This document shows positions 28,765 through 41,174 of a DNA stretch of 64,000 nt, piece by piece. This DNA comes from a phage, in sequence record PZ452596.1; one strand, 5' to 3'. The position numbers were made by a program, and so were the translations under genes. Below the pieces are notes generated by a model. That model saw only the letters and a list, made by a program, of their open reading frames with translations, made no database searches and was not told where the DNA came from. How positions within the stretch are numbered: position 1 is the first letter of the stretch; each line of letters starts with the position of its first letter.

Positions 28765-28977
28765 TCATTTTTGTCCTGTATTTACTTTATGCCGATGCAC
28801 GGCCTTAACTTTATCAAGGTATTTTTCAAAATTTCGCAATCTAGTATAGTCTGCCGGAGATTGGTTGAGTGATACTTCTCGACGCAAAGCTGAAATGATA
28901 TTTCCAACTTCCCTACGAATTTCATCTAATTGAAGAACAGTAAGATTGCGAAGTTGCTTTTCAGTTAATTGTAGCAT
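28765..28977 (-). CDS. Hypothetical protein (rI.1 position), 70 aa
   Basis: Track ORF. Confidence 0.5.
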
Positions 28978-29019
28978 ATATACCCCTTTAGTTAGATAAA
29001 CCTATTTATAACTTTTGCA

Positions 29020-29601
29020 CTAACCGAGCTTTTTAGTTAATTCATTCCAATGTTTTCTACACAAAGAAACATAAATTTCATCGCCAATACAGATTTGATT
29101 ACCCTCTTTAACTGGTGTTCCATCTTCCATTAATCGAGCTGTCATAATCGCTTTTTTACCACAGTGACAAACTGCTTTTAGTTCAATAAGTTTATCTGCA
29201 ATCGCCAAAAGTTCTTTAGAACCTTCAAATAATTTTCCAGCGAAATCAGTCCTTAATCCATAAGCCATAACAGGAACATTATATGTATCAACAATTCGGC
29301 TCAATTGATGCACTTGTTCAGTTTTTAAAAACTGAGCTTCATCTACAAATACACAATGAATATCTTTTTGTGCTTCAGCCCATTTATAGAACTCGAAAAT
29401 ATCCATATCATCTGTAATAATATTCGCTTCCTGCTTAATTCCAATGCGAGAAACGACTTCACAGACAGAATCGCGAGTATCAATAGCAGGCTTAAGAACT
29501 AATACGCTCATTCCACGTTCTTTATAATTATGTGCAGCAGTCAAAAGAGAAGCAGATTTTCCAGCATTCATTGCTGCATAAGTAAAAATTAAACTCGCCA
29601 T
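29020..29601 (-). CDS. tk: Thymidine kinase
   Basis: 193-aa ORF with P-loop MNAGKSASLL and C-terminal Cys cluster. Confidence 0.85.
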   Translation of the reverse strand: MASLIFTYAAMNAGKSASLLTAAHNYKERGMSVLVLKPAIDTRDSVCEVVSRIGIKQEANIITDDMDIFEFYKWAEAQKDIHCVFVDEAQFLKTEQVHQLSRIVDTYNVPVMAYGLRTDFAGKLFEGSKELLAIADKLIELKAVCHCGKKAIMTARLMEDGTPVKEGNQICIGDEIYVSLCRKHWNELTKKLG

Positions 29602-29602
29602 C

Positions 29603-29791
29603 TTAGTCCTTAGTTAAATTTTCTAAATATGTTTCTAAATCATTTTCAGCTTTATCGATAGATTTTACTAATTCGTAATATGTTTCGGCATCTCCATAAT
29701 CAGAAGATAATTCAAAAGACAAATCCTTTTCTAAACTAATAATTTCACCAACTAAAAATAATATTTCGTTCTTTTGTTCGCGAGTAATCAT
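29603..29791 (-). CDS. Small helical protein family member, 62 aa
   Basis: Track ORF MITREQKNEILFLVGEI... Confidence 0.5.
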   Translation of the reverse strand: MITREQKNEILFLVGEIISLEKDLSFELSSDYGDAETYYELVKSIDKAENDLETYLENLTKD

Positions 29792-29973
29792 AAGGAATTT
29801 ATATAATTAATAAGTTCTTGTTCTTTATTATCGAATTCTTTAGAAAGTTCTTCGTACTCGTTTGCATTAAAAGGACCGCATTCATCACAAACTTTTTCCA
29901 ATTCACTGTTTTTATCCATAACTTCGTGGATAAGAGAAAAGAGTTTGTCTTTTTGTTCTTTGCTTAGGCTCAT
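29788..29973 (-). CDS. Small helical protein family member, 61 aa
   Basis: Track ORF MSLSKEQKDKLFSLIHEV... Confidence 0.5.
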   Translation of the reverse strand: MSLSKEQKDKLFSLIHEVMDKNSELEKVCDECGPFNANEYEELSKEFDNKEQELINYINSL

Positions 29974-30143
29974 ATATTAATTTCCAGAAGTTTTAAAATA
30001 ATTCGCTTTTGCTTAAATATTTCAATAGTTAAATGATCAGTATCTTTTTGACCAATTCCAATGGCAAAACCTTTATTAGCAGCGAGTTCAATTAAATTAT
30101 CAAGTTCACGTAACACTTCGTACTGTAACTCATAACTATTCAT
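29970..30143 (-). CDS. Small hypothetical ORF, 57 aa
   Basis: Hand-translated MNSYELQYEVLRELDNLIELAANKGF...; ATGA overlaps at both ends. Confidence 0.35.
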   Translation of the reverse strand: MNSYELQYEVLRELDNLIELAANKGFAIGIGQKDTDHLTIEIFKQKRIILKLLEINI

Positions 30144-30367
30144 TTCGGTTTACCTTCTTTAACGAAATCTGGATAAGGATAAAATCCCGAATAAAATCCT
30201 TCACCTTTATGATTGATGCATCCTTTATTAGAACAATAGCACCAATAATCGAAATCACAAGCCATTTCATCGTTGCATAAAGCAAAAACAACCGGCCACT
30301 TACACTTTTCGCAGTGGGCATTTTTAAGAATACTAGTTTGGCTCATAACCATGTAACCTTTAAGCAA
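30140..30367 (-). CDS. Cysteine-rich small protein, 75 aa
   Basis: Track ORF with HCEKCKW...CNDEMACDFDYWCYCSNKGC. Confidence 0.5.
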   Translation of the reverse strand: MLKGYMVMSQTSILKNAHCEKCKWPVVFALCNDEMACDFDYWCYCSNKGCINHKGEGFYSGFYPYPDFVKEGKPK

Positions 30368-30555
30368 TATTCTTCTACATGTTGTTTACGACCTTTCTTA
30401 TCAATAAAGGTATATTCAACGAATGTTCCAATGTAGTCTTTATCTACATCATGTGGACTATTAATTGGACATTTAGTACGGCAAATGCGTTCCCATTGAC
30501 GAATAATTACTGCCTTATTCTTTGGGTCATACGGATGTGGATAATGTATATTCAT
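30343..30555 (-). CDS. Hypothetical protein, 70 aa
   Basis: Track ORF 30343..30570 trimmed to MNIHYPHPYD; ATGA overlap with the macro-domain gene stop. Confidence 0.45.
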   Translation of the reverse strand: MNIHYPHPYDPKNKAVIIRQWERICRTKCPINSPHDVDKDYIGTFVEYTFIDKKGRKQHVEEYCLKVTWL

Positions 30556-31019
30556 AATAACGGTTCCCAATCAACAATCACAATTTCTAATTTAGAAGAA
30601 TATGTATCTAAAATCCCCTCAATAATATCCCAGTTCCCTTTACCTATGCCTGCACCAATCCTAGGCATATAGATTGTGGGTTTAATCAGTTTATTTTCAC
30701 CAAACTCATTTAATTCTAACATACAATTCATTAAAGCGGAATACTCAAAATTTGGCCCTGGTTGAAATTGAGTATAAAGGTTGAAGCAATACGCTTTATG
30801 AGTCCTAAAGTATTTTTCATAGACTGAGTAAGAACCGAGTTTAGTTACATCACCCCATTCAGTCTGTAATTTATCAGCTTCCAAAATTTTAGGGAAAGCT
30901 TTGGTTAATTGACCCGCTACGCCTGAACCCATAGTATGAAAACAATTGCATCCATGCGCAATATTTTTACCTTCAGCGAAAAGGGCGACAATATCGCCCT
31001 TGATATATTTTACAATCAT
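30552..31019 (-). CDS. Macro-domain-like protein, 155 aa
   Basis: GDIVALFAEGKNIAHGCNCFHTMGSGVAGQL and YMPRIGAGIGKG resemble macro-domain signature blocks. Confidence 0.5.
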   Translation of the reverse strand: MIVKYIKGDIVALFAEGKNIAHGCNCFHTMGSGVAGQLTKAFPKILEADKLQTEWGDVTKLGSYSVYEKYFRTHKAYCFNLYTQFQPGPNFEYSALMNCMLELNEFGENKLIKPTIYMPRIGAGIGKGNWDIIEGILDTYSSKLEIVIVDWEPLL

Positions 31020-31363
31020 CTAGTACTCAATCCTCGATTATAAGAATCTACCAAACGGTCAACCATTGAATGACAAGCGGCTTTATCTTTCTCCTCCGCA
31101 ACTGAGCATTCTAAGGTATTCCACTTTTTAGCATATCGTTTTAATAATGTATCGTTTTTGTATCTGCTTGATTTATCTCTTTCTCCGTCTTTATATGCAT
31201 ATATTAATTTCTGTGCAAATTCAGCTTGGCATGCTTTATTTTTCCCACAATAATCTGCCGCAGTGCGGTTTACATATTCTCTAATTTCAGTATATGATGT
31301 ATCTGCTGATGCAGAAGCAGAAAATGAAATTAATCCTATACATAAAACCAAAATTTTAGTCAT
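31016..31363 (-). CDS. Small secreted Cys-containing protein, 115 aa
   Basis: N-terminal signal-peptide-like MTKILVLCIGLISFSASASA; four Cys. Confidence 0.5.
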   Translation of the reverse strand: MTKILVLCIGLISFSASASADTSYTEIREYVNRTAADYCGKNKACQAEFAQKLIYAYKDGERDKSSRYKNDTLLKRYAKKWNTLECSVAEEKDKAACHSMVDRLVDSYNRGLSTR

Positions 31364-31901
31364 TTACTATTTCCAAAAGTTTATTATTTTTAAGGTAATT
31401 AGCCTTTTCTAGGACTTCAGAAGCATATTTAGAACCTGCTTTAACATTCCATCCCGAATTATAAGAGGATATTGCTTTTCTTATATCGCCCTTATGTATA
31501 TTTAACCAATAAGAAAGTTCAATGTACGCCCAGGAAGCTGAATTGGATCGTTTATTCAACATTCTTTTTATTTCAGCATCAGTCATATTATAACCAAGTT
31601 CCTTAACTCTCGCTCGCATAGTAGGCAAATAATTTTGGAACATTCCATAAGCGTGATGCTTTGGTTTAGATTTTAAATTAACTCCGCCAGAGCTTTCTTG
31701 CCATAAAATGGCTGCCATTATATGACCTAATCCGCTCTTGTGGATATTTTTATGTGTTTTATATTTTCCATCCTTAGAAAATTGTTCCCCGAATTGATAC
31801 GCGTAACGCATGTTATCGAGTTGGACATTACTGAAAGTATGCTCGGAGCTATGTGCCATCATTGAAATGGCCAATAGACCAGCGAGTAGTGCTTTTCTCA
31901 T
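31356..31901 (-). CDS. Secreted lytic transglycosylase (SLT)-like protein, 181 aa
   Basis: Signal peptide MRKALLAGLLAISMMAHS; SLT-type AILWQESSGG motif. Confidence 0.55.
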   Translation of the reverse strand: MRKALLAGLLAISMMAHSSEHTFSNVQLDNMRYAYQFGEQFSKDGKYKTHKNIHKSGLGHIMAAILWQESSGGVNLKSKPKHHAYGMFQNYLPTMRARVKELGYNMTDAEIKRMLNKRSNSASWAYIELSYWLNIHKGDIRKAISSYNSGWNVKAGSKYASEVLEKANYLKNNKLLEIVND

Positions 31902-31908
31902 GCTTACC

Positions 31909-32370
31909 TCATTGAGTTTTAATTACTGCTTTAGAAGCCTTTCCTGGTAAACGACGACTGTTAATAATTGCCATCCTACATTGAAGTGACGGGTCTTTGA
32001 ACTTCTCGTTAGGTTTACAAACTGTAAATCCAAGCCAAAGATTTCCATCTGTGATTTCTAAACGTCCAGGACGATATTCAACCCCATCAATAAAATCCTC
32101 GTCAATGTCAGGACGCGGAGGCATACTCAGGAATTCATTAACTTCTAAAACATGGTCTTTTATTTTATGGAATAATTCAAAAACGTATGTCTCATCAATC
32201 TCCCGTTGAATTGCGCGATCAAGAAGATGTTGAGAATATTTTAGATGAAACGATGAGACCCCTGCTGCTTTTGATGCCTCACGAATCTCATTGTTAATTT
32301 GACGAAACTCCGACTCAAAGTGACGACGGAGCTTATTTCGACGGATAAAAACTTCTGTGTTGATAGTCAT
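31909..32370 (-). CDS. regB: RegB endoribonuclease
   Basis: 153-aa ORF MTINTEVFIRRNKLRRHFESEFRQINNEIREA...; early promoter directly upstream. Confidence 0.8.
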   Translation of the reverse strand: MTINTEVFIRRNKLRRHFESEFRQINNEIREASKAAGVSSFHLKYSQHLLDRAIQREIDETYVFELFHKIKDHVLEVNEFLSMPPRPDIDEDFIDGVEYRPGRLEITDGNLWLGFTVCKPNEKFKDPSLQCRMAIINSRRLPGKASKAVIKTQ

Positions 32371-32398
32371 GTTATTCTCCTCTTAACTGATAGAAAAA

Positions 32399-32428
32399 TT
32401 ATACCACAGTCAAGAGGAAAAGTAAACA
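32399..32428 (-). promoter_or_regulatory. T4-type early promoter upstream of regB (TTTACT - 17 nt - TATAAT)
   Basis: Seen on the minus strand. Confidence 0.5.
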
Positions 32429-32429
32429 G

Positions 32430-32708
32430 TTATTCTTTAAATCTGATCAATTTATTCATAGACTTTGAAACTTCTGCACGAACCTCATGTAGATTTTTGA
32501 GCTGTTCAAGACGCTGCGTATAGTAAGCAATTTCATCTTCTTCGAGACAGTCCTGCGAATCTTCTTTAAGATAACGTGCATAGTCCTGAAAAGCGTTACG
32601 GATTACTTCCTGGAAGTCATCAAGACTTTGAATTTTCTTAGGAGCAGCAGATACACGACGAGGGGCAGTATAATACTCATAACCAAACCCTGCGCTTAAT
32701 TGAGCCAT
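32430..32708 (-). CDS. Hypothetical protein, 92 aa
   Basis: Track ORF 32430..32750 trimmed to [13 protein letters not shown]. Confidence 0.45.
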
Positions 32709-32974
32709 TAGTATTTTTCCTCTGGTTGGAACACTGCACGACAAGCCCACATACTGGCTTCTTTGAGTTTCGTTTTAGCAATAGTTAACTGATCGAGGCT
32801 TTCGGAGTAATTCTTCGCGAGTTCATCATCTTCACAGCTATCAAATGCTTCCCAAAATTCATCGTATAAAGCATCAAAGATAAGTCCTAAACGAACTTCA
32901 GCGTCTTTAATAGCATTTACTTTACCGATTTTTTCGTCGGTATGTGGCTTATAACCTTTAATATCTTCAATCAT
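32708..32974 (-). CDS. Acb2-like (T4 Vs.4-type) candidate anti-CBASS nucleotide sponge, 88 aa
   Basis: Track ORF trimmed to [15 protein letters not shown] (RBS GAGGAA); C-terminal [10 protein letters not shown] resembles the Acb2 family; position in the vs cluster. Confidence 0.45.
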
Positions 32975-33188
32975 ATTTGACTTCCTCACCAGTACATAAA
33001 TCGTATTCAACTAAACGAATAGGTTCATGAATGCCATATCCCTGAACAGAAATTTCTGTCGTAGGATAAATTCCACTAATATCACCCATGTTCCACGCTT
33101 CATTAAATTGCTGTTCGCCTGAATTACTAAACCATTCTGCGAAAGCATTTAGCACATCTTTAGAACCTTCAATAATTATCTTTGCCAT
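32967..33188 (-). CDS. Hypothetical protein, 73 aa
   Basis: Track ORF. Confidence 0.5.
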   Translation of the reverse strand: MAKIIIEGSKDVLNAFAEWFSNSGEQQFNEAWNMGDISGIYPTTEISVQGYGIHEPIRLVEYDLCTGEEVKYD

Positions 33189-33550
33189 TACAGACTCTCA
33201 GTAAAGGTACGAGCGATAACGTCGCGCTGCTGTTCCGGAGTCAGAGAGTTAAAGCGAACTGCATAACCGGATACACGGATGGTCAGCTGCGGATATTTTT
33301 CCGGATGCTTAACTGCATCTTCCAGAGTTTCACGACGCAGAACGTTAACGTTCAGATGTTGACCACCTTCAATTTTAACTGTAGGCTGTGGCTCAATTTC
33401 AATTTCACGGGCATGCAAACCGTAGAAAATTTCTGGGTCTACAAAAGAGTCCTCTTTAAAGGTTTTAGAGACAATAATTCGTGCTTGAATACCATCTTCA
33501 AAATAAATAGTGCCTTTGTGTGTGCCTTCAAGAATTTGATATGCTTTCAT
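33188..33550 (-). CDS. GrcA/YfiD-like autonomous glycyl-radical cofactor protein (T4 Y06I type), 120 aa
   Basis: C-terminal glycyl-radical domain with [27 protein letters not shown]. Confidence 0.8.
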
Positions 33551-33557
33551 ATAAACC

Positions 33558-33887
33558 TCAATTAGAAAATAAATTTATCCAAGATTGTTCTTTAATTAAA
33601 AATGGCTCAGAATCATATGCCATTAAACTTTGCGTAATTAATCCTTTAAAAGGTCCATCAATAAATTCCATGGTAAAATATGGAATTTTATTCATTAGCC
33701 GTGCATTAGGAGCAGTACACAAAACTCTGCATCCTTTGAATACGCCTTTTTGTAATTTGTATTGCTTAGGATAAAATTCGCTCAAGACGTTGTTATTTGC
33801 CAAAATTTCAAAATGATTCACCAATTTATTTTTAATAGTTTTTGGCGAAAAATAAAGATATTCGAAAAGCTGAGTGTCTGTCATCAT
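33558..33887 (-). CDS. Hypothetical protein, 109 aa
   Basis: Track ORF 33558..33938 trimmed to [10 protein letters not shown]; ATGATGA overlap with the upstream stop. Confidence 0.45.
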
Positions 33888-40346: not shown

Positions 40347-40422
40347 TGGTCGAGGCAGTAGGGATCGAACCTACGACCCAGGACTTAGAAGGTCCTTGCT
40401 CTTCCTTCTGAGCTATGCCTCG
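40347..40422 (-). tRNA. tRNA-Arg (anticodon UCU), CCA encoded
   Basis: Hand-folded cloverleaf: 7-bp acceptor, T-loop UUCGAUC, anticodon loop CUUCUAA. Confidence 0.8.
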
Positions 40423-40426
40423 GATT

Positions 40427-40501
40427 TGGCGGACGTGATAGGATTCGAACCTATAACCAATCGCTTAACAGGCGATCGCTCTGCCATTGAGCTACACATC
40501 C
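40427..40501 (-). tRNA. tRNA-Asn (anticodon GUU), CCA encoded
   Basis: Hand-folded cloverleaf; anticodon loop CUGUUAA; T-loop UUCGAAU. Confidence 0.75.
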
Positions 40502-40505
40502 AAAT

Positions 40506-40592
40506 TGGTGGGGAGTGATGGAGTCGAACCACCCGAGTCGCAATGACAATGGATTTACAGTCCACACCGCTACCTCTACGGGATAACTCCCC
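40506..40592 (-). tRNA. tRNA-Tyr (anticodon GUA), long variable arm, CCA encoded
   Basis: Hand-folded; anticodon loop CUGUAAA; 15-nt variable arm; T-loop UUCGACU. Confidence 0.75.
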
Positions 40593-40601
40593 TAATTAAT
40601 T

Positions 40602-40676
40602 TGGTGGCCCTGGGTGGAATTGAACCACCATCTGGCGATTATGAGTCGCTTGCTTGAACCTTCCAGCTACAGGGCC
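40602..40676 (-). tRNA. tRNA with CAU anticodon (Ile2/AUA-reading type as in T4, or elongator Met)
   Basis: Hand-folded; anticodon loop CUCAUAA; anticodon stem lacks initiator-type GGG/CCC pairs. Confidence 0.7.
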
Positions 40677-40677
40677 T

Positions 40678-40753
40678 TGGTGCTGATTGACGGAATCGAA
40701 CCGCCGACCTTCTCATTACAAGTGAGTTGCTCTACCTACTGAGCTAAATCAGC
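40678..40753 (-). tRNA. tRNA-Thr (anticodon UGU), CCA encoded
   Basis: Hand-folded; anticodon loop CUUGUAA. Confidence 0.8.
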
Positions 40754-40758
40754 AAAAC

Positions 40759-40848
40759 TGGCGGAGGCGATAGGATTTGAACCTATGAGTCGCCGGAGCG
40801 ACTGCCGGTTTTCAAGACCGGTGCATTAAACCACTCTGCCACGCCTCC
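40759..40848 (-). tRNA. tRNA-Ser (anticodon UGA), long variable arm, CCA encoded
   Basis: Hand-folded; anticodon loop CUUGAAA; 18-nt variable arm. Confidence 0.8.
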
Positions 40849-40850
40849 AG

Positions 40851-40924
40851 TCTCCATACAAGGATTTGAACCTTGGACCTCCTGATCCCAAATCAGGCGC
40901 TCTACCAAACTGAGCTACACGGAG
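40851..40924 (-). tRNA. tRNA-Pro (anticodon UGG), CCA not encoded
   Basis: Hand-folded; anticodon loop UUUGGGA. Confidence 0.75.
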
Positions 40925-40934
40925 TAAATTAAAT

Positions 40935-41008
<74 letters not shown>

Positions 41009-41013
41009 AAATT

Positions 41014-41100
41014 TGGTGCGAGAAGTGGGACTCGAACCCACAAGGAAATCATTCCGCAGCATTTTAAGTGCTGTGCCTTTACCAATTTGACCATTCTCGC
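41014..41100 (-). tRNA. tRNA-Leu (anticodon UAA), long variable arm, CCA encoded
   Basis: Hand-folded; anticodon loop CUUAAAA. Confidence 0.8.
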
Positions 41101-41101
41101 G

Positions 41102-41174
41102 CTGGGAATAAAGGACTCGAACCTTTGCATCTAGCAGTCAAAGTGCTATGCCTTACCAACTTGGCTAATTCCCA
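41102..41174 (-). tRNA. tRNA-Gln (anticodon UUG), CCA not encoded
   Basis: Hand-folded; anticodon loop CUUUGAC. Confidence 0.75.

Follow-up and report, generated by a model that had tools for sequence, protein, structure and literature searches.

What does a T4-like phage gain from the ORF at 30552..31019 of the window (the whole 64,000-nucleotide stretch of phage DNA analysed here, sequence record PZ452596.1), which an earlier note had read as a macro-domain-like protein coupled to a 70-aa partner? The window shows 100% nucleotide identity to phage RB27, a T4-like Tequatrovirus, and the 155-aa product of the ORF is identical to T4 Tk.4 (ORF 60.5; 155/155 residues, 100% amino acid identity). 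T4 Tk.4 has recently been renamed AdfM, for anti-DarT factor macrodomain; the protein and its flanking genes are the same, while the phage genome, RB27, differs from that of the published work (bioRxiv 10.1101/2025.11.20.689424). The locus comprises the following features:

31356..31901: vs.1, encoding an SLT domain, upstream of tk.4
31016..31363: vs, upstream of tk.4
31031..31035, minus strand: GAGGA resembling a Shine-Dalgarno site, 11 nt ahead of the tk.4 start codon
30552..31019, minus strand: tk.4 (adfM) CDS, a 155-aa ORF encoding a stand-alone macrodomain (Pfam, AF2, Foldseek)
30343..30555, minus strand: tk.3, Pfam DUF7202, 70 aa, the downstream neighbour of tk.4

The order regB-vs.1-vs-tk.4-tk.3 is common to RB27 and T4. 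Downstream of tk.3, two extra small ORFs are present in RB27 and RB32 and absent from T4. The alternative-frame ORF at 30136..30321 was considered as the 61-aa T4 'ORF 59.9' and rejected, as ORF 59.9 corresponds to tk.2 (29788..29973 of the window). The GAGGA site coincides with the potential rRNA binding site of ORF 60.5 in the T4 record X04567. A promoter and terminator scan of 28900..33600 returned 17 matches against a shuffled expectation of 17.3, so that no promoter can be assigned to tk.4 specifically; on the minus strand, the best match is at 32398..32426, upstream of regB. An Rfam scan detected the tRNA cluster only, with no match in the tk.4 region. The location of tk.4 next to secreted proteins, to which the earlier note had drawn attention, holds at the level of inspection by eye, by which the N-termini of vs and vs.1 look Sec-signal-like; the two neighbours appear to reflect unrelated synteny.

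Tk.4 matches the Pfam Macro family (PF01661) over model positions 2-113 of 118, with E = 2.9e-6 and a score of 27.7 bits, above the gathering cutoff of 22 bits. The AF2 model (pLDDT 95.4, pTM 0.90) has a macro fold with six strands and five helices. A Foldseek search of the PDB with this model returned 159 matches at E <= 0.001; the great majority of those listed are macrodomains or engineered proteins that use one as scaffold. The top matches are human TARG1/OARD1 (E = 3e-10, TM 0.74-0.82), yeast Poa1p, BT1257 from Bacteroides thetaiotaomicron, the DarG macrodomains from Thermus and M. tuberculosis, and SCO6735 from Streptomyces coelicolor; the Foldseek probability is 1.00 for TARG1, Poa1p, BT1257, and DarG. 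TARG1 and Poa1p, the best fold matches, are compact macrodomains of ~150 aa, as is Tk.4. In sequence, the best PDB match is BT1257 (2FG1; single-sequence E = 1.3e-9), and the Tk.4 family profile reaches E = 1.4e-18 for BT1257 and 4.7e-15 for TARG1. The macro resemblance is thus far beyond chance. Tk.4 is found in 2847 phage records, and its family is named 'phosphatase' (Poa1p-like) in PHROG 335 and RefSeq.

Three segments of the protein define the predicted active site:

30906..30998, minus strand: N-terminal putative ADP-ribose-binding block, residues 8-38, with the pattern GD...HGCNC...MGSGVA; GDIVALFAEGKNIAHGCNCFHTMGSGVAGQL
30768..30776, minus strand: Y82-T83-Q84, located by HMM and MAFFT alignments
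30636..30671, minus strand: second glycine-rich loop, putatively substrate/phosphate-binding, residues 117-128; YMPRIGAGIGKG

Both the conserved Asn25 and one of the two glycine loops, G31-x-G33, lie in the first block. In 119 aligned sequences, comprising Tk.4 and its homologues, Asn25 is kept in 118, while G33, A35, Y82, Q84, P119, I121, G122, and G124 are present in all 119. The macro signatures that the earlier note had recognised in the first and third segments are therefore conserved, and the family search and structure prediction that it had proposed both gave a macrodomain. Sequence, fold, and the conserved Asn and Gly-rich loops confirm Tk.4 as a macrodomain.

The antitoxin DarG has a macrodomain homologous to Tk.4 (profile E = 9.6e-14 and 1.8e-11; structures 5M31/5M3E from Thermus aquaticus and 5M3I from M. 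tuberculosis). The DarG macrodomains align with the Tk.4 model at TM 0.74-0.78, and the Asn and glycine loops are common to both. However, DarG is a protein of ~340 aa with a C-terminal DarT-binding domain, whereas Tk.4, with 155 aa, lacks that domain. The NCBIfam model antitoxin_DarG (NF048014) aligns with Tk.4 at positions 2-146 of 338 (E = 2.5e-7) and scores 30.3 bits, against a curated cutoff of 250 bits and 465.6 bits for a Meiothermus DarG; the PADLOC DarG model aligns at positions 2-145 of 329 (E = 1.3e-9). The Meiothermus DarTG, a bona fide system that came from a plasmid search and served as the alignment control, has darT directly upstream of darG. No darT lies beside tk.4, whose neighbours are vs and tk.3, and the catalytic Lys80 of Thermus DarG is replaced by Gln84 in Tk.4. 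In score, C-terminal domain, adjacent darT, and catalytic Lys, Tk.4 is thus not a DarG equivalog. The plasmid search was also directed at a cellular donor of tk.4. Its matches are distant (<=38% identity), bar one on an E. coli record that is 39% identical to Tk.4, and it yielded no recent DarG donor.

To compare the active sites, Tk.4, the bona fide DarG, TARG1, BT1257, and PhiKZ gp104 were aligned with MAFFT. Asn25 of Tk.4 aligns with N22 of DarG and N23 of PhiKZ gp104 (AdfM), whose N23A mutant has reduced activity (PMC13309987). Where TARG1 (K84), DarG (K80), and PhiKZ AdfM have their catalytic Lys, Tk.4 has Gln84; in the HMM alignment, the YTQ motif of Tk.4 pairs with IGQ in BT1257 and ITK in TARG1. 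TARG1 uses a Lys84/Asp125 dyad, whereas Tk.4 has Gln84/Gly126 at these positions, and since G126 aligns with D125, the Lys/Asp dyad is absent from Tk.4. In SCO6735, Gln85 has been stated to be equivalent to the catalytic-Lys position, and its replacement in Q85A abolishes dT-ADPr hydrolysis (PMC9411070). SCO6735 (5E3B) and BT1257 are Gln-type, ALC1-like, single-domain, stand-alone proteins, as is Tk.4. In contrast to Tk.4, they possess a mobile loop ~5 residues longer than that of DarG and TARG1 and carrying extra lysines; in our alignment, BT1257 has a six-residue insertion after the conserved Gln relative to Tk.4, TARG1, and DarG. As Tk.4 lacks the catalytic Lys, the TARG1 Asp, and the SCO6735/BT1257 mobile loop, the exact mechanism is not transferable from either relative. 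The two groups also differ in setting: Tk.4 is viral and directed against a host toxin, whereas the SCO6735/BT1257 class protects the cellular genome.

For T4, the function of tk.4 has been addressed by published genetics. A T4 lacking both adfA and adfN was still resistant to DarTG2, from which a further factor was predicted (PMC11825919). When T4 was screened by transposon mutagenesis on a DarTG2 host, tk.4 alone gave a significant hit, its depletion was reported specifically with DarTG2 present, and a clean tk.4 knockout was sensitised to DarTG2, upon which the gene was renamed adfM (bioRxiv 10.1101/2025.11.20.689424). This evidence comes from a 2025 preprint (bioRxiv 10.1101/2025.11.20.689424) and was obtained in T4 rather than RB27, the proteins being identical. 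By this genetic evidence, T4 Tk.4 and DarG share the same target, the thymidine ADP-ribosylation made by DarT2. PhiKZ gp104, from a chimallivirus, is likewise a phage orphan macrodomain that counters DarTG2 (PMC13309987). It is distant from Tk.4 (BLAST aligns 23 residues; Tk.4 family profile E = 2e-13) and is Lys-type, with a PTK motif, and DarG-like, whereas Tk.4 is Gln-type. It also differs in being imported into the phage nucleus and in its known in vitro activity, by which it strips DarT2-made ADP-ribose (PMC13309987). SCO6735, which also has Gln instead of the Lys, cleaves dT-ADPr in DNA and relieves the toxicity of DarT (PMC9411070). Removal of DarT2-made ADP-ribose from DNA is likewise published for DarG and TARG1.

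Taken together, we consider it probable, at roughly 85%, that tk.4 (adfM) is an orphan DarG-like macrodomain used by T4-family phages to neutralise host DarTG2. The suggestion of the earlier note that the phage counters ADP-ribosylating defence toxins, with DarTG named, agrees with the T4 tk.4 genetics on the identical protein (bioRxiv 10.1101/2025.11.20.689424). Its two other suggestions, action on ADPR-based immune signals (Thoeris) and regulation of the phage's own ADP-ribosyltransferases, drew no support from the present analysis. The anti-DarTG2 function of T4 tk.4 is already published, and the present locus confirms it. As small additions, sequence comparison shows that Tk.4 corresponds to the macrodomain half only of DarG, and that it carries an invariant Gln84 in place of the catalytic Lys.

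Enzymatic removal by Tk.4 'seems likely' according to the preprint (bioRxiv 10.1101/2025.11.20.689424), and by analogy with its relatives we infer that Tk.4 itself removes ADP-ribose from thymidine, with Gln84 as the key residue. On infection, DarT2 would ADP-ribosylate thymidines of single-stranded DNA at TNTC motifs and so block phage DNA replication. The ADP-ribose moiety would be bound in the macrodomain cleft by Asn25 and by the G31-x-G33 and I121-G122-x-G124 loops, and Gln84 may hold the distal ribose in place, a role that Gln85 has in SCO6735. Hydrolysis of the ribose-thymine bond by Tk.4 would then release ADP-ribose and restore the DNA. Because the C-terminal DarT-binding domain is absent, Tk.4 probably acts mainly as an enzyme and not by toxin sequestration.

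The earlier note had treated the 70-aa ORF as a coupled partner, and it is very improbable that Tk.4 and Tk.3 form a two-protein module in which Tk.3 assists Tk.4 or sets its specificity and the ATGA overlap couples their translation. The overlap itself is real: at 30552..30555, the TGA stop of tk.4 overlaps the ATG of tk.3 (30555), as the note had described. Furthermore, tk.3 is the next gene after tk.4 in many Tequatrovirus genomes, T4 and RB32 among them, and the full activity of another anti-DarT factor, T4 AdfN, reportedly depends on a further T4 factor (PMC11825919). Overlaps of 4-8 nt, however, occur at seven consecutive gene junctions, from vs.1 through tk.1, and the tk.4/tk.3 overlap is not distinctive within this gene string. 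The two genes are also distributed differently: Tk.4 occurs in 2847 phage records and Tk.3 in 838. A Tk.4 homologue that has no Tk.3 within 3 kb is encoded by Klebsiella phage Roth04 and by Acinetobacter phage Kimel, and a Tk.3 homologue that lacks a Tk.4 within 2.5 kb by Serratia phage KKP_3264 and by Escherichia phage WPEC2. The proteins of phage vB_ECOLIGBLB0003 are 57% (Tk.4) and 93% (Tk.3) identical to those of RB27, indicating that the two genes recombine independently. Nor was tk.3 recovered in the DarTG2 screen, whose single match was tk.4 (bioRxiv 10.1101/2025.11.20.689424).

Tk.3 itself is 100% identical to T4 ORF 60.1 and matches Pfam DUF7202 (E = 1.6e-38) and PHROG 2008. Its ORF can be extended to a TTG at 30570 (75 aa), but the 70-aa ATG form matches both the T4 annotation (ORF 60.1, AA 1-70) and DUF7202 positions 1-70 of 70. 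Its AF2 model (pLDDT 84.9) contains three long beta strands and matches nothing in the PDB at E <= 0.001, and searches of PADLOC and NCBIfam returned no match and no defence-related family, which also speaks against a joint module with Tk.4. Homologues form only 12 clusters among 5.8 billion proteins; H4, H7, and C29 are fully conserved and C64 almost fully, which hints at a candidate metal site. Accordingly, tk.3 is a separate gene and an ordinary operon neighbour of tk.4, and the proposed partnership is not supported.

Other substrates may be considered for Tk.4. It is unlikely, in our estimate, that the protein mainly processes soluble ADP-ribose derivatives, such as ADP-ribose-1''-phosphate (as yeast Poa1p), O-acetyl-ADP-ribose, or immune or toxic ADPr metabolites, with DarTG2 protection being secondary; in such a role it might provide ADP-ribose for NAD+ reconstitution. 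The 'phosphatase' label in PHROG 335 and RefSeq would fit this role, as would the place of Poa1p, an ADPr-1''-phosphate phosphatase, among the best matches in sequence (E = 2.8e-6, N-terminal 96 residues) and fold (TM 0.80). In addition, H22 and T29 of Tk.4 align with Poa1p residues mutated in solved structures (H23A, S30A). Poa1p, however, has Ser and not Gln at the Gln84 position, and enzymes of the class with Gln or Lys there act on DNA-linked ADP-ribose. The sole known tk.4 phenotype is a loss specific to DarTG2 hosts, and no NAD-salvage genes lie beside tk.4 in T4 or RB27. In Vibrio phage Gary and an Acinetobacter Saclayvirus, by contrast, Tk.4 homologues with an identical set of active-site residues are flanked by a Prs-like and a Nampt-like gene, which suggests that some lineages, at least, act on soluble ADP-ribose. 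Arginine is the residue modified by the phage's own transferases Alt, ModA, and ModB, and it is ARH/DraG-type enzymes that normally reverse Arg-ADPr. TARG1-class macrodomains instead remove Glu/Asp-linked ADP-ribose, and within the window tk.4 is unlinked to alt or mod genes. That Tk.4 reverses or tunes ADP-ribosylation or RNAylation by these transferases is therefore hardly to be expected, even though T4-type phages carry three ADP-ribosyltransferases (PMC9503650), for which an eraser encoded by the same phage would make a natural regulator, and TARG1 and SCO6735 act on protein ADP-ribosylation too. The specificity of tk.4 depletion for the presence of DarTG2 also stands against this role (bioRxiv 10.1101/2025.11.20.689424). 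A broader proposal, which we regard as tentative and rather doubtful, is that the Tk.4 type represents a third catalytic solution in the DarG/TARG1 class, with an invariant Gln and no long mobile loop, and perhaps has a broader job than anti-DarT2 activity. Since the same enzyme is embedded in NAD+-salvage pairs in some phages, it could remove ADP-ribose from DNA and also provide free ADP-ribose for NAD+ reconstitution by the phage. In a weaker variant of this proposal, the conserved His/Cys-bearing Tk.3 would modulate Tk.4 in Tequatroviruses.

Neutralisation of host DarTG2 by tk.4 remains the reading that we prefer, and as the biology of the locus has already been described, the value of the finding lies in confirmation. 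Orphan antitoxin-like enzymes of phages illustrate how toxin-antitoxin defences that ADP-ribosylate DNA are disarmed, and at least three anti-DarT factors, AdfA, AdfN, and AdfM, are combined in T4-type phages. The Gln-type active site of Tk.4, which resembles SCO6735 and BT1257 and differs from DarG and PhiKZ AdfM, could guide the biochemistry of T4 AdfM, as could the NAD+-salvage contexts of family members in other phages.

Nucleotides 29000-32400 of the window match Enterobacteria phage RB27 at 100% identity and many Tequatrovirus genomes at 98-99%. Gene names were taken from the RefSeq annotation of RB32, a near-identical phage, where the minus strand carries regB, vs.1, vs, tk.4, tk.3, two unnamed small ORFs, tk.2, tk.1, and tk. 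The flagged ORF, both peptide blocks quoted from it, and the ATGA overlap between its stop and the following start are exactly as the earlier note described.

30552..31019, minus strand: tk.4, the flagged ORF, by the RB32 RefSeq annotation
30343..30555, minus strand: tk.3, the 70-aa ORF, starting with the ATG at 30555
30140..30346, minus strand: small Cys-rich ORF of 68 aa, Pfam Phage_zn_bind (PF23895, E = 2.3e-29)
29970..30143, minus strand: small ORF of 57 aa, between tk.3 and tk.2

The 70-aa reading of Tk.3 is the correct one: it matches T4 ORF 60.1 and covers the whole of Pfam DUF7202. Both small ORFs between tk.3 and tk.2 are present in RB27 and RB32, whereas T4 lacks them.

Tk.4 had been read as macro-domain-like, and this identity is borne out by sequence and fold. 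The protein scores 27.7 bits against Pfam Macro, above the gathering threshold of 22. As a single sequence, it matches the solved macrodomains BT1257 (1.3e-9), Poa1p, SCO6735, DarG, and TARG1, while a profile of 62 homologues matches BT1257 (1.4e-18), TARG1 (4.7e-15), SCO6735 (2.6e-14), and M. tuberculosis DarG (9.6e-14). An AlphaFold2 model built from the 62-homologue alignment has a mean pLDDT of 95.4, and its best fold matches in the PDB are TARG1, Poa1p, BT1257, the Thermus and Mycobacterium DarG macrodomains, and SCO6735, with TM of about 0.7-0.8. Among 119 aligned sequences (Tk.4 and homologues), Asn25 is kept in 118, and Gly33, Ala35, Tyr82, Gln84, Pro119, Ile121, Gly122, and Gly124 in all; the motifs quoted earlier rank among the most conserved columns. 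Neither a missing macro fold nor unconserved motifs were found, and thus the macrodomain call stands.

Tk.4 aligns only with the N-terminal macrodomain of DarG, at positions 2-145 of 329 in the PADLOC model and 2-146 of 338 in the NCBIfam antitoxin_DarG equivalog, where its score of 30 bits falls short of the cutoff of 250. The control, a gene located after a DarT gene on a Meiothermus plasmid, reaches 466 bits over the full antitoxin_DarG model. Since the match is confined to the macrodomain and, in NCBIfam, far below the cutoff, Tk.4 is an orphan macrodomain and not a DarG; it has neither the DarT-binding domain nor an adjacent toxin gene. In the control locus (L007:1348-3041, Meiothermus taiwanensis plasmid pMtWR-220), DarT and DarG form a bona fide pair, scoring 250 and 466 bits with the NCBIfam equivalogs; a type I restriction S subunit lies on one side and an AAA ATPase/DUF4276 pair on the other, surroundings that look like a defence island.

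RB27 Tk.4 is 100% identical to T4 Tk.4, and the Tk.3 proteins of the two phages are identical as well. T4 without adfA and adfN is reported to remain resistant to DarTG2, from which a further factor was predicted (PMC11825919). That gap was filled in November 2025 by a preprint that mapped phage gene essentiality with transposons and grew a T4 insertion library on a DarTG2-expressing host (bioRxiv 10.1101/2025.11.20.689424). According to this preprint, tk.4 was the only gene reported from the DarTG2 screen, and a clean knockout of tk.4 sensitised T4 to DarTG2. Its authors renamed the gene adfM, noted an AlphaFold likeness to M. tuberculosis DarG, and wrote that an enzyme activity taking ADP-ribose off DNA 'seems likely'. 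With an identical protein and a sensitised knockout, the earlier idea of trying the gene against DarTG proves right, and its answer is already in the literature. The evidence supports the macrodomain and anti-DarT reading, which was published earlier for the identical protein of T4. A 2026 preprint (bioRxiv 10.64898/2026.06.19.733364) that wrongly calls tk.4 a 'putative thymidine kinase' reports RIL-seq pairing of the T2 tk.4 transcript with the host sRNA ArcZ; it also detected Tk.4 protein in infected cells, at a level that an arcZ deletion left unchanged.

We aligned Tk.4 with the bona fide Meiothermus DarG, TARG1, BT1257, and PhiKZ gp104. Invariant Gln84 (motif YTQ) aligns with Lys80 of DarG, Lys84 of TARG1, and the lysine of the PTK motif in gp104, whereas BT1257 has Gln at this position, as in Tk.4; the position of TARG1 Asp125 is held by Gly126. 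SCO6735 is reported to carry the same substitution (Gln85), to lose hydrolysis of thymidine-linked ADP-ribose upon Q85A mutation, and to act on DNA with greater efficiency than DarG or TARG1 (PMC9411070). The SCO6735/BT1257 subclass is marked by a 'mobile loop' five residues longer, which Tk.4 lacks. We found no description of Gln84 in place of Lys in Tk.4 in those parts of the macrodomain literature that we consulted. The distant relative gp104 of jumbo phage PhiKZ, also named AdfM, is reported to strip an oligonucleotide of DarT2-made ADP-ribose in vitro and to rescue DarT2 toxicity, with lowered activity in N23A (PMC13309987). BLAST aligns only 23 residues of Tk.4 and gp104, while the Tk.4 family profile gives E = 2e-13. 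By these residues and the absence of the longer loop, T4 AdfM is assigned as Gln-type with a short loop and PhiKZ AdfM as Lys-type; the two share name and target but belong to different branches.

The 70-aa ORF had been proposed as a coupled partner of Tk.4, which our analysis leaves unsupported. The tk.4/tk.3 overlap is real yet uninformative: overlaps occur at seven junctions in a row between vs.1 and tk.1, six of them being ATGA and the remaining one 8 nt long. Homologues of Tk.4 occur in 2847 phage records versus 838 for Tk.3, and each gene can stand without the other: around the Tk.4 homologues of Klebsiella phage Roth04 and Acinetobacter phage Kimel no Tk.3 lies within 3 kb, and around the Tk.3 homologues of Serratia phage KKP_3264 and Escherichia phage WPEC2 no Tk.4 lies within 2.5 kb. 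In one Escherichia phage, where the two genes lie side by side, Tk.4 shares 57% identity with its RB27 counterpart and Tk.3 shares 93%, showing that they recombine as separate units. Tk.3 is also absent from the DarTG2 screen report. Tk.3 belongs to DUF7202 and has only 12 homologue clusters; in the family, His4, His7, and Cys29 are invariant and Cys64 nearly so, and these could form a small metal-binding site. The AlphaFold2 model of Tk.3 shows three long beta strands; it gave no fold match in the PDB.

Elsewhere in the locus, vs (31016..31363, minus strand) and vs.1 (31356..31901, minus strand) have Sec-signal-like N-termini, MTKILVLCIGLISFSASASA and MRKALLAGLLAISMMAHS, respectively, expected in the SLT-domain protein Vs.1 and odd in Vs, annotated as a modifier of cytoplasmic valyl-tRNA synthetase. 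In the HIDEN-SEQ preprint, vs is described as the T4 gene with the strongest depletion in minimal medium. The 120-aa vs.6 (33188..33550, minus strand) ends in a glycyl-radical-type motif, RVSGYAVRF, its Klebsiella phage Roth04 homologue is annotated 'glycine radical', and it looks like a stand-alone glycyl-radical cofactor-like protein. A tRNA cluster at 40350..41174 (minus strand) has ten tRNA matches, of which 40511..40590 is barely over the Rfam threshold (30.2 bits versus 29).

As a rival reading, a role on soluble ADP-ribose may apply in other lineages or be a second activity, and it fits a 2022 comparative-genomics argument (PMC9503650). Some support for it comes from two unrelated phages, where a homologue of Tk.4 with matching active-site residues sits between a Prs-like and a Nampt-like gene. 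The one known tk.4 phenotype is specific to DarTG2. These homologues, in Vibrio phage Gary (L008:3004-3480) and Acinetobacter phage vB_AbaM_B09_Aci01-1 (L009:3001-3474), are about 33-35% identical to Tk.4 and share its Asn, Y-x-Q, and Gly-loop residues. Each directly adjoins a gene annotated 'nicotinamide phosphoribosyl transferase', and a 'ribose-phosphate pyrophosphokinase' gene lies close by (in Gary, between the two). The setting is one of phage NAD+ salvage and suggests that, in some lineages, these proteins are linked to the metabolism of free ADP-ribose. The database label 'phosphatase' derives from likeness to yeast Poa1p, with which His22 and Thr29 of Tk.4 align while position 84 differs. 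Reversal of the arginine ADP-ribosylation made by the phage's own Alt/Mod is unlikely for an enzyme of this class.

The anti-DarT reading combines the fold, conservation, and T4 identity computed here with the reported genetic requirement for tk.4 and the chemistry reported for its relatives. We infer that Tk.4 is itself a hydrolase. During infection, host DarT2 would ADP-ribosylate thymidines in single-stranded DNA; Tk.4 would grip the ADP-ribose via Asn25 and two glycine loops and hydrolyse the ribose-thymine bond, the distal ribose probably being positioned by Gln84. Removal of ADP-ribose by Tk.4 would make the phage's DNA replicable again.
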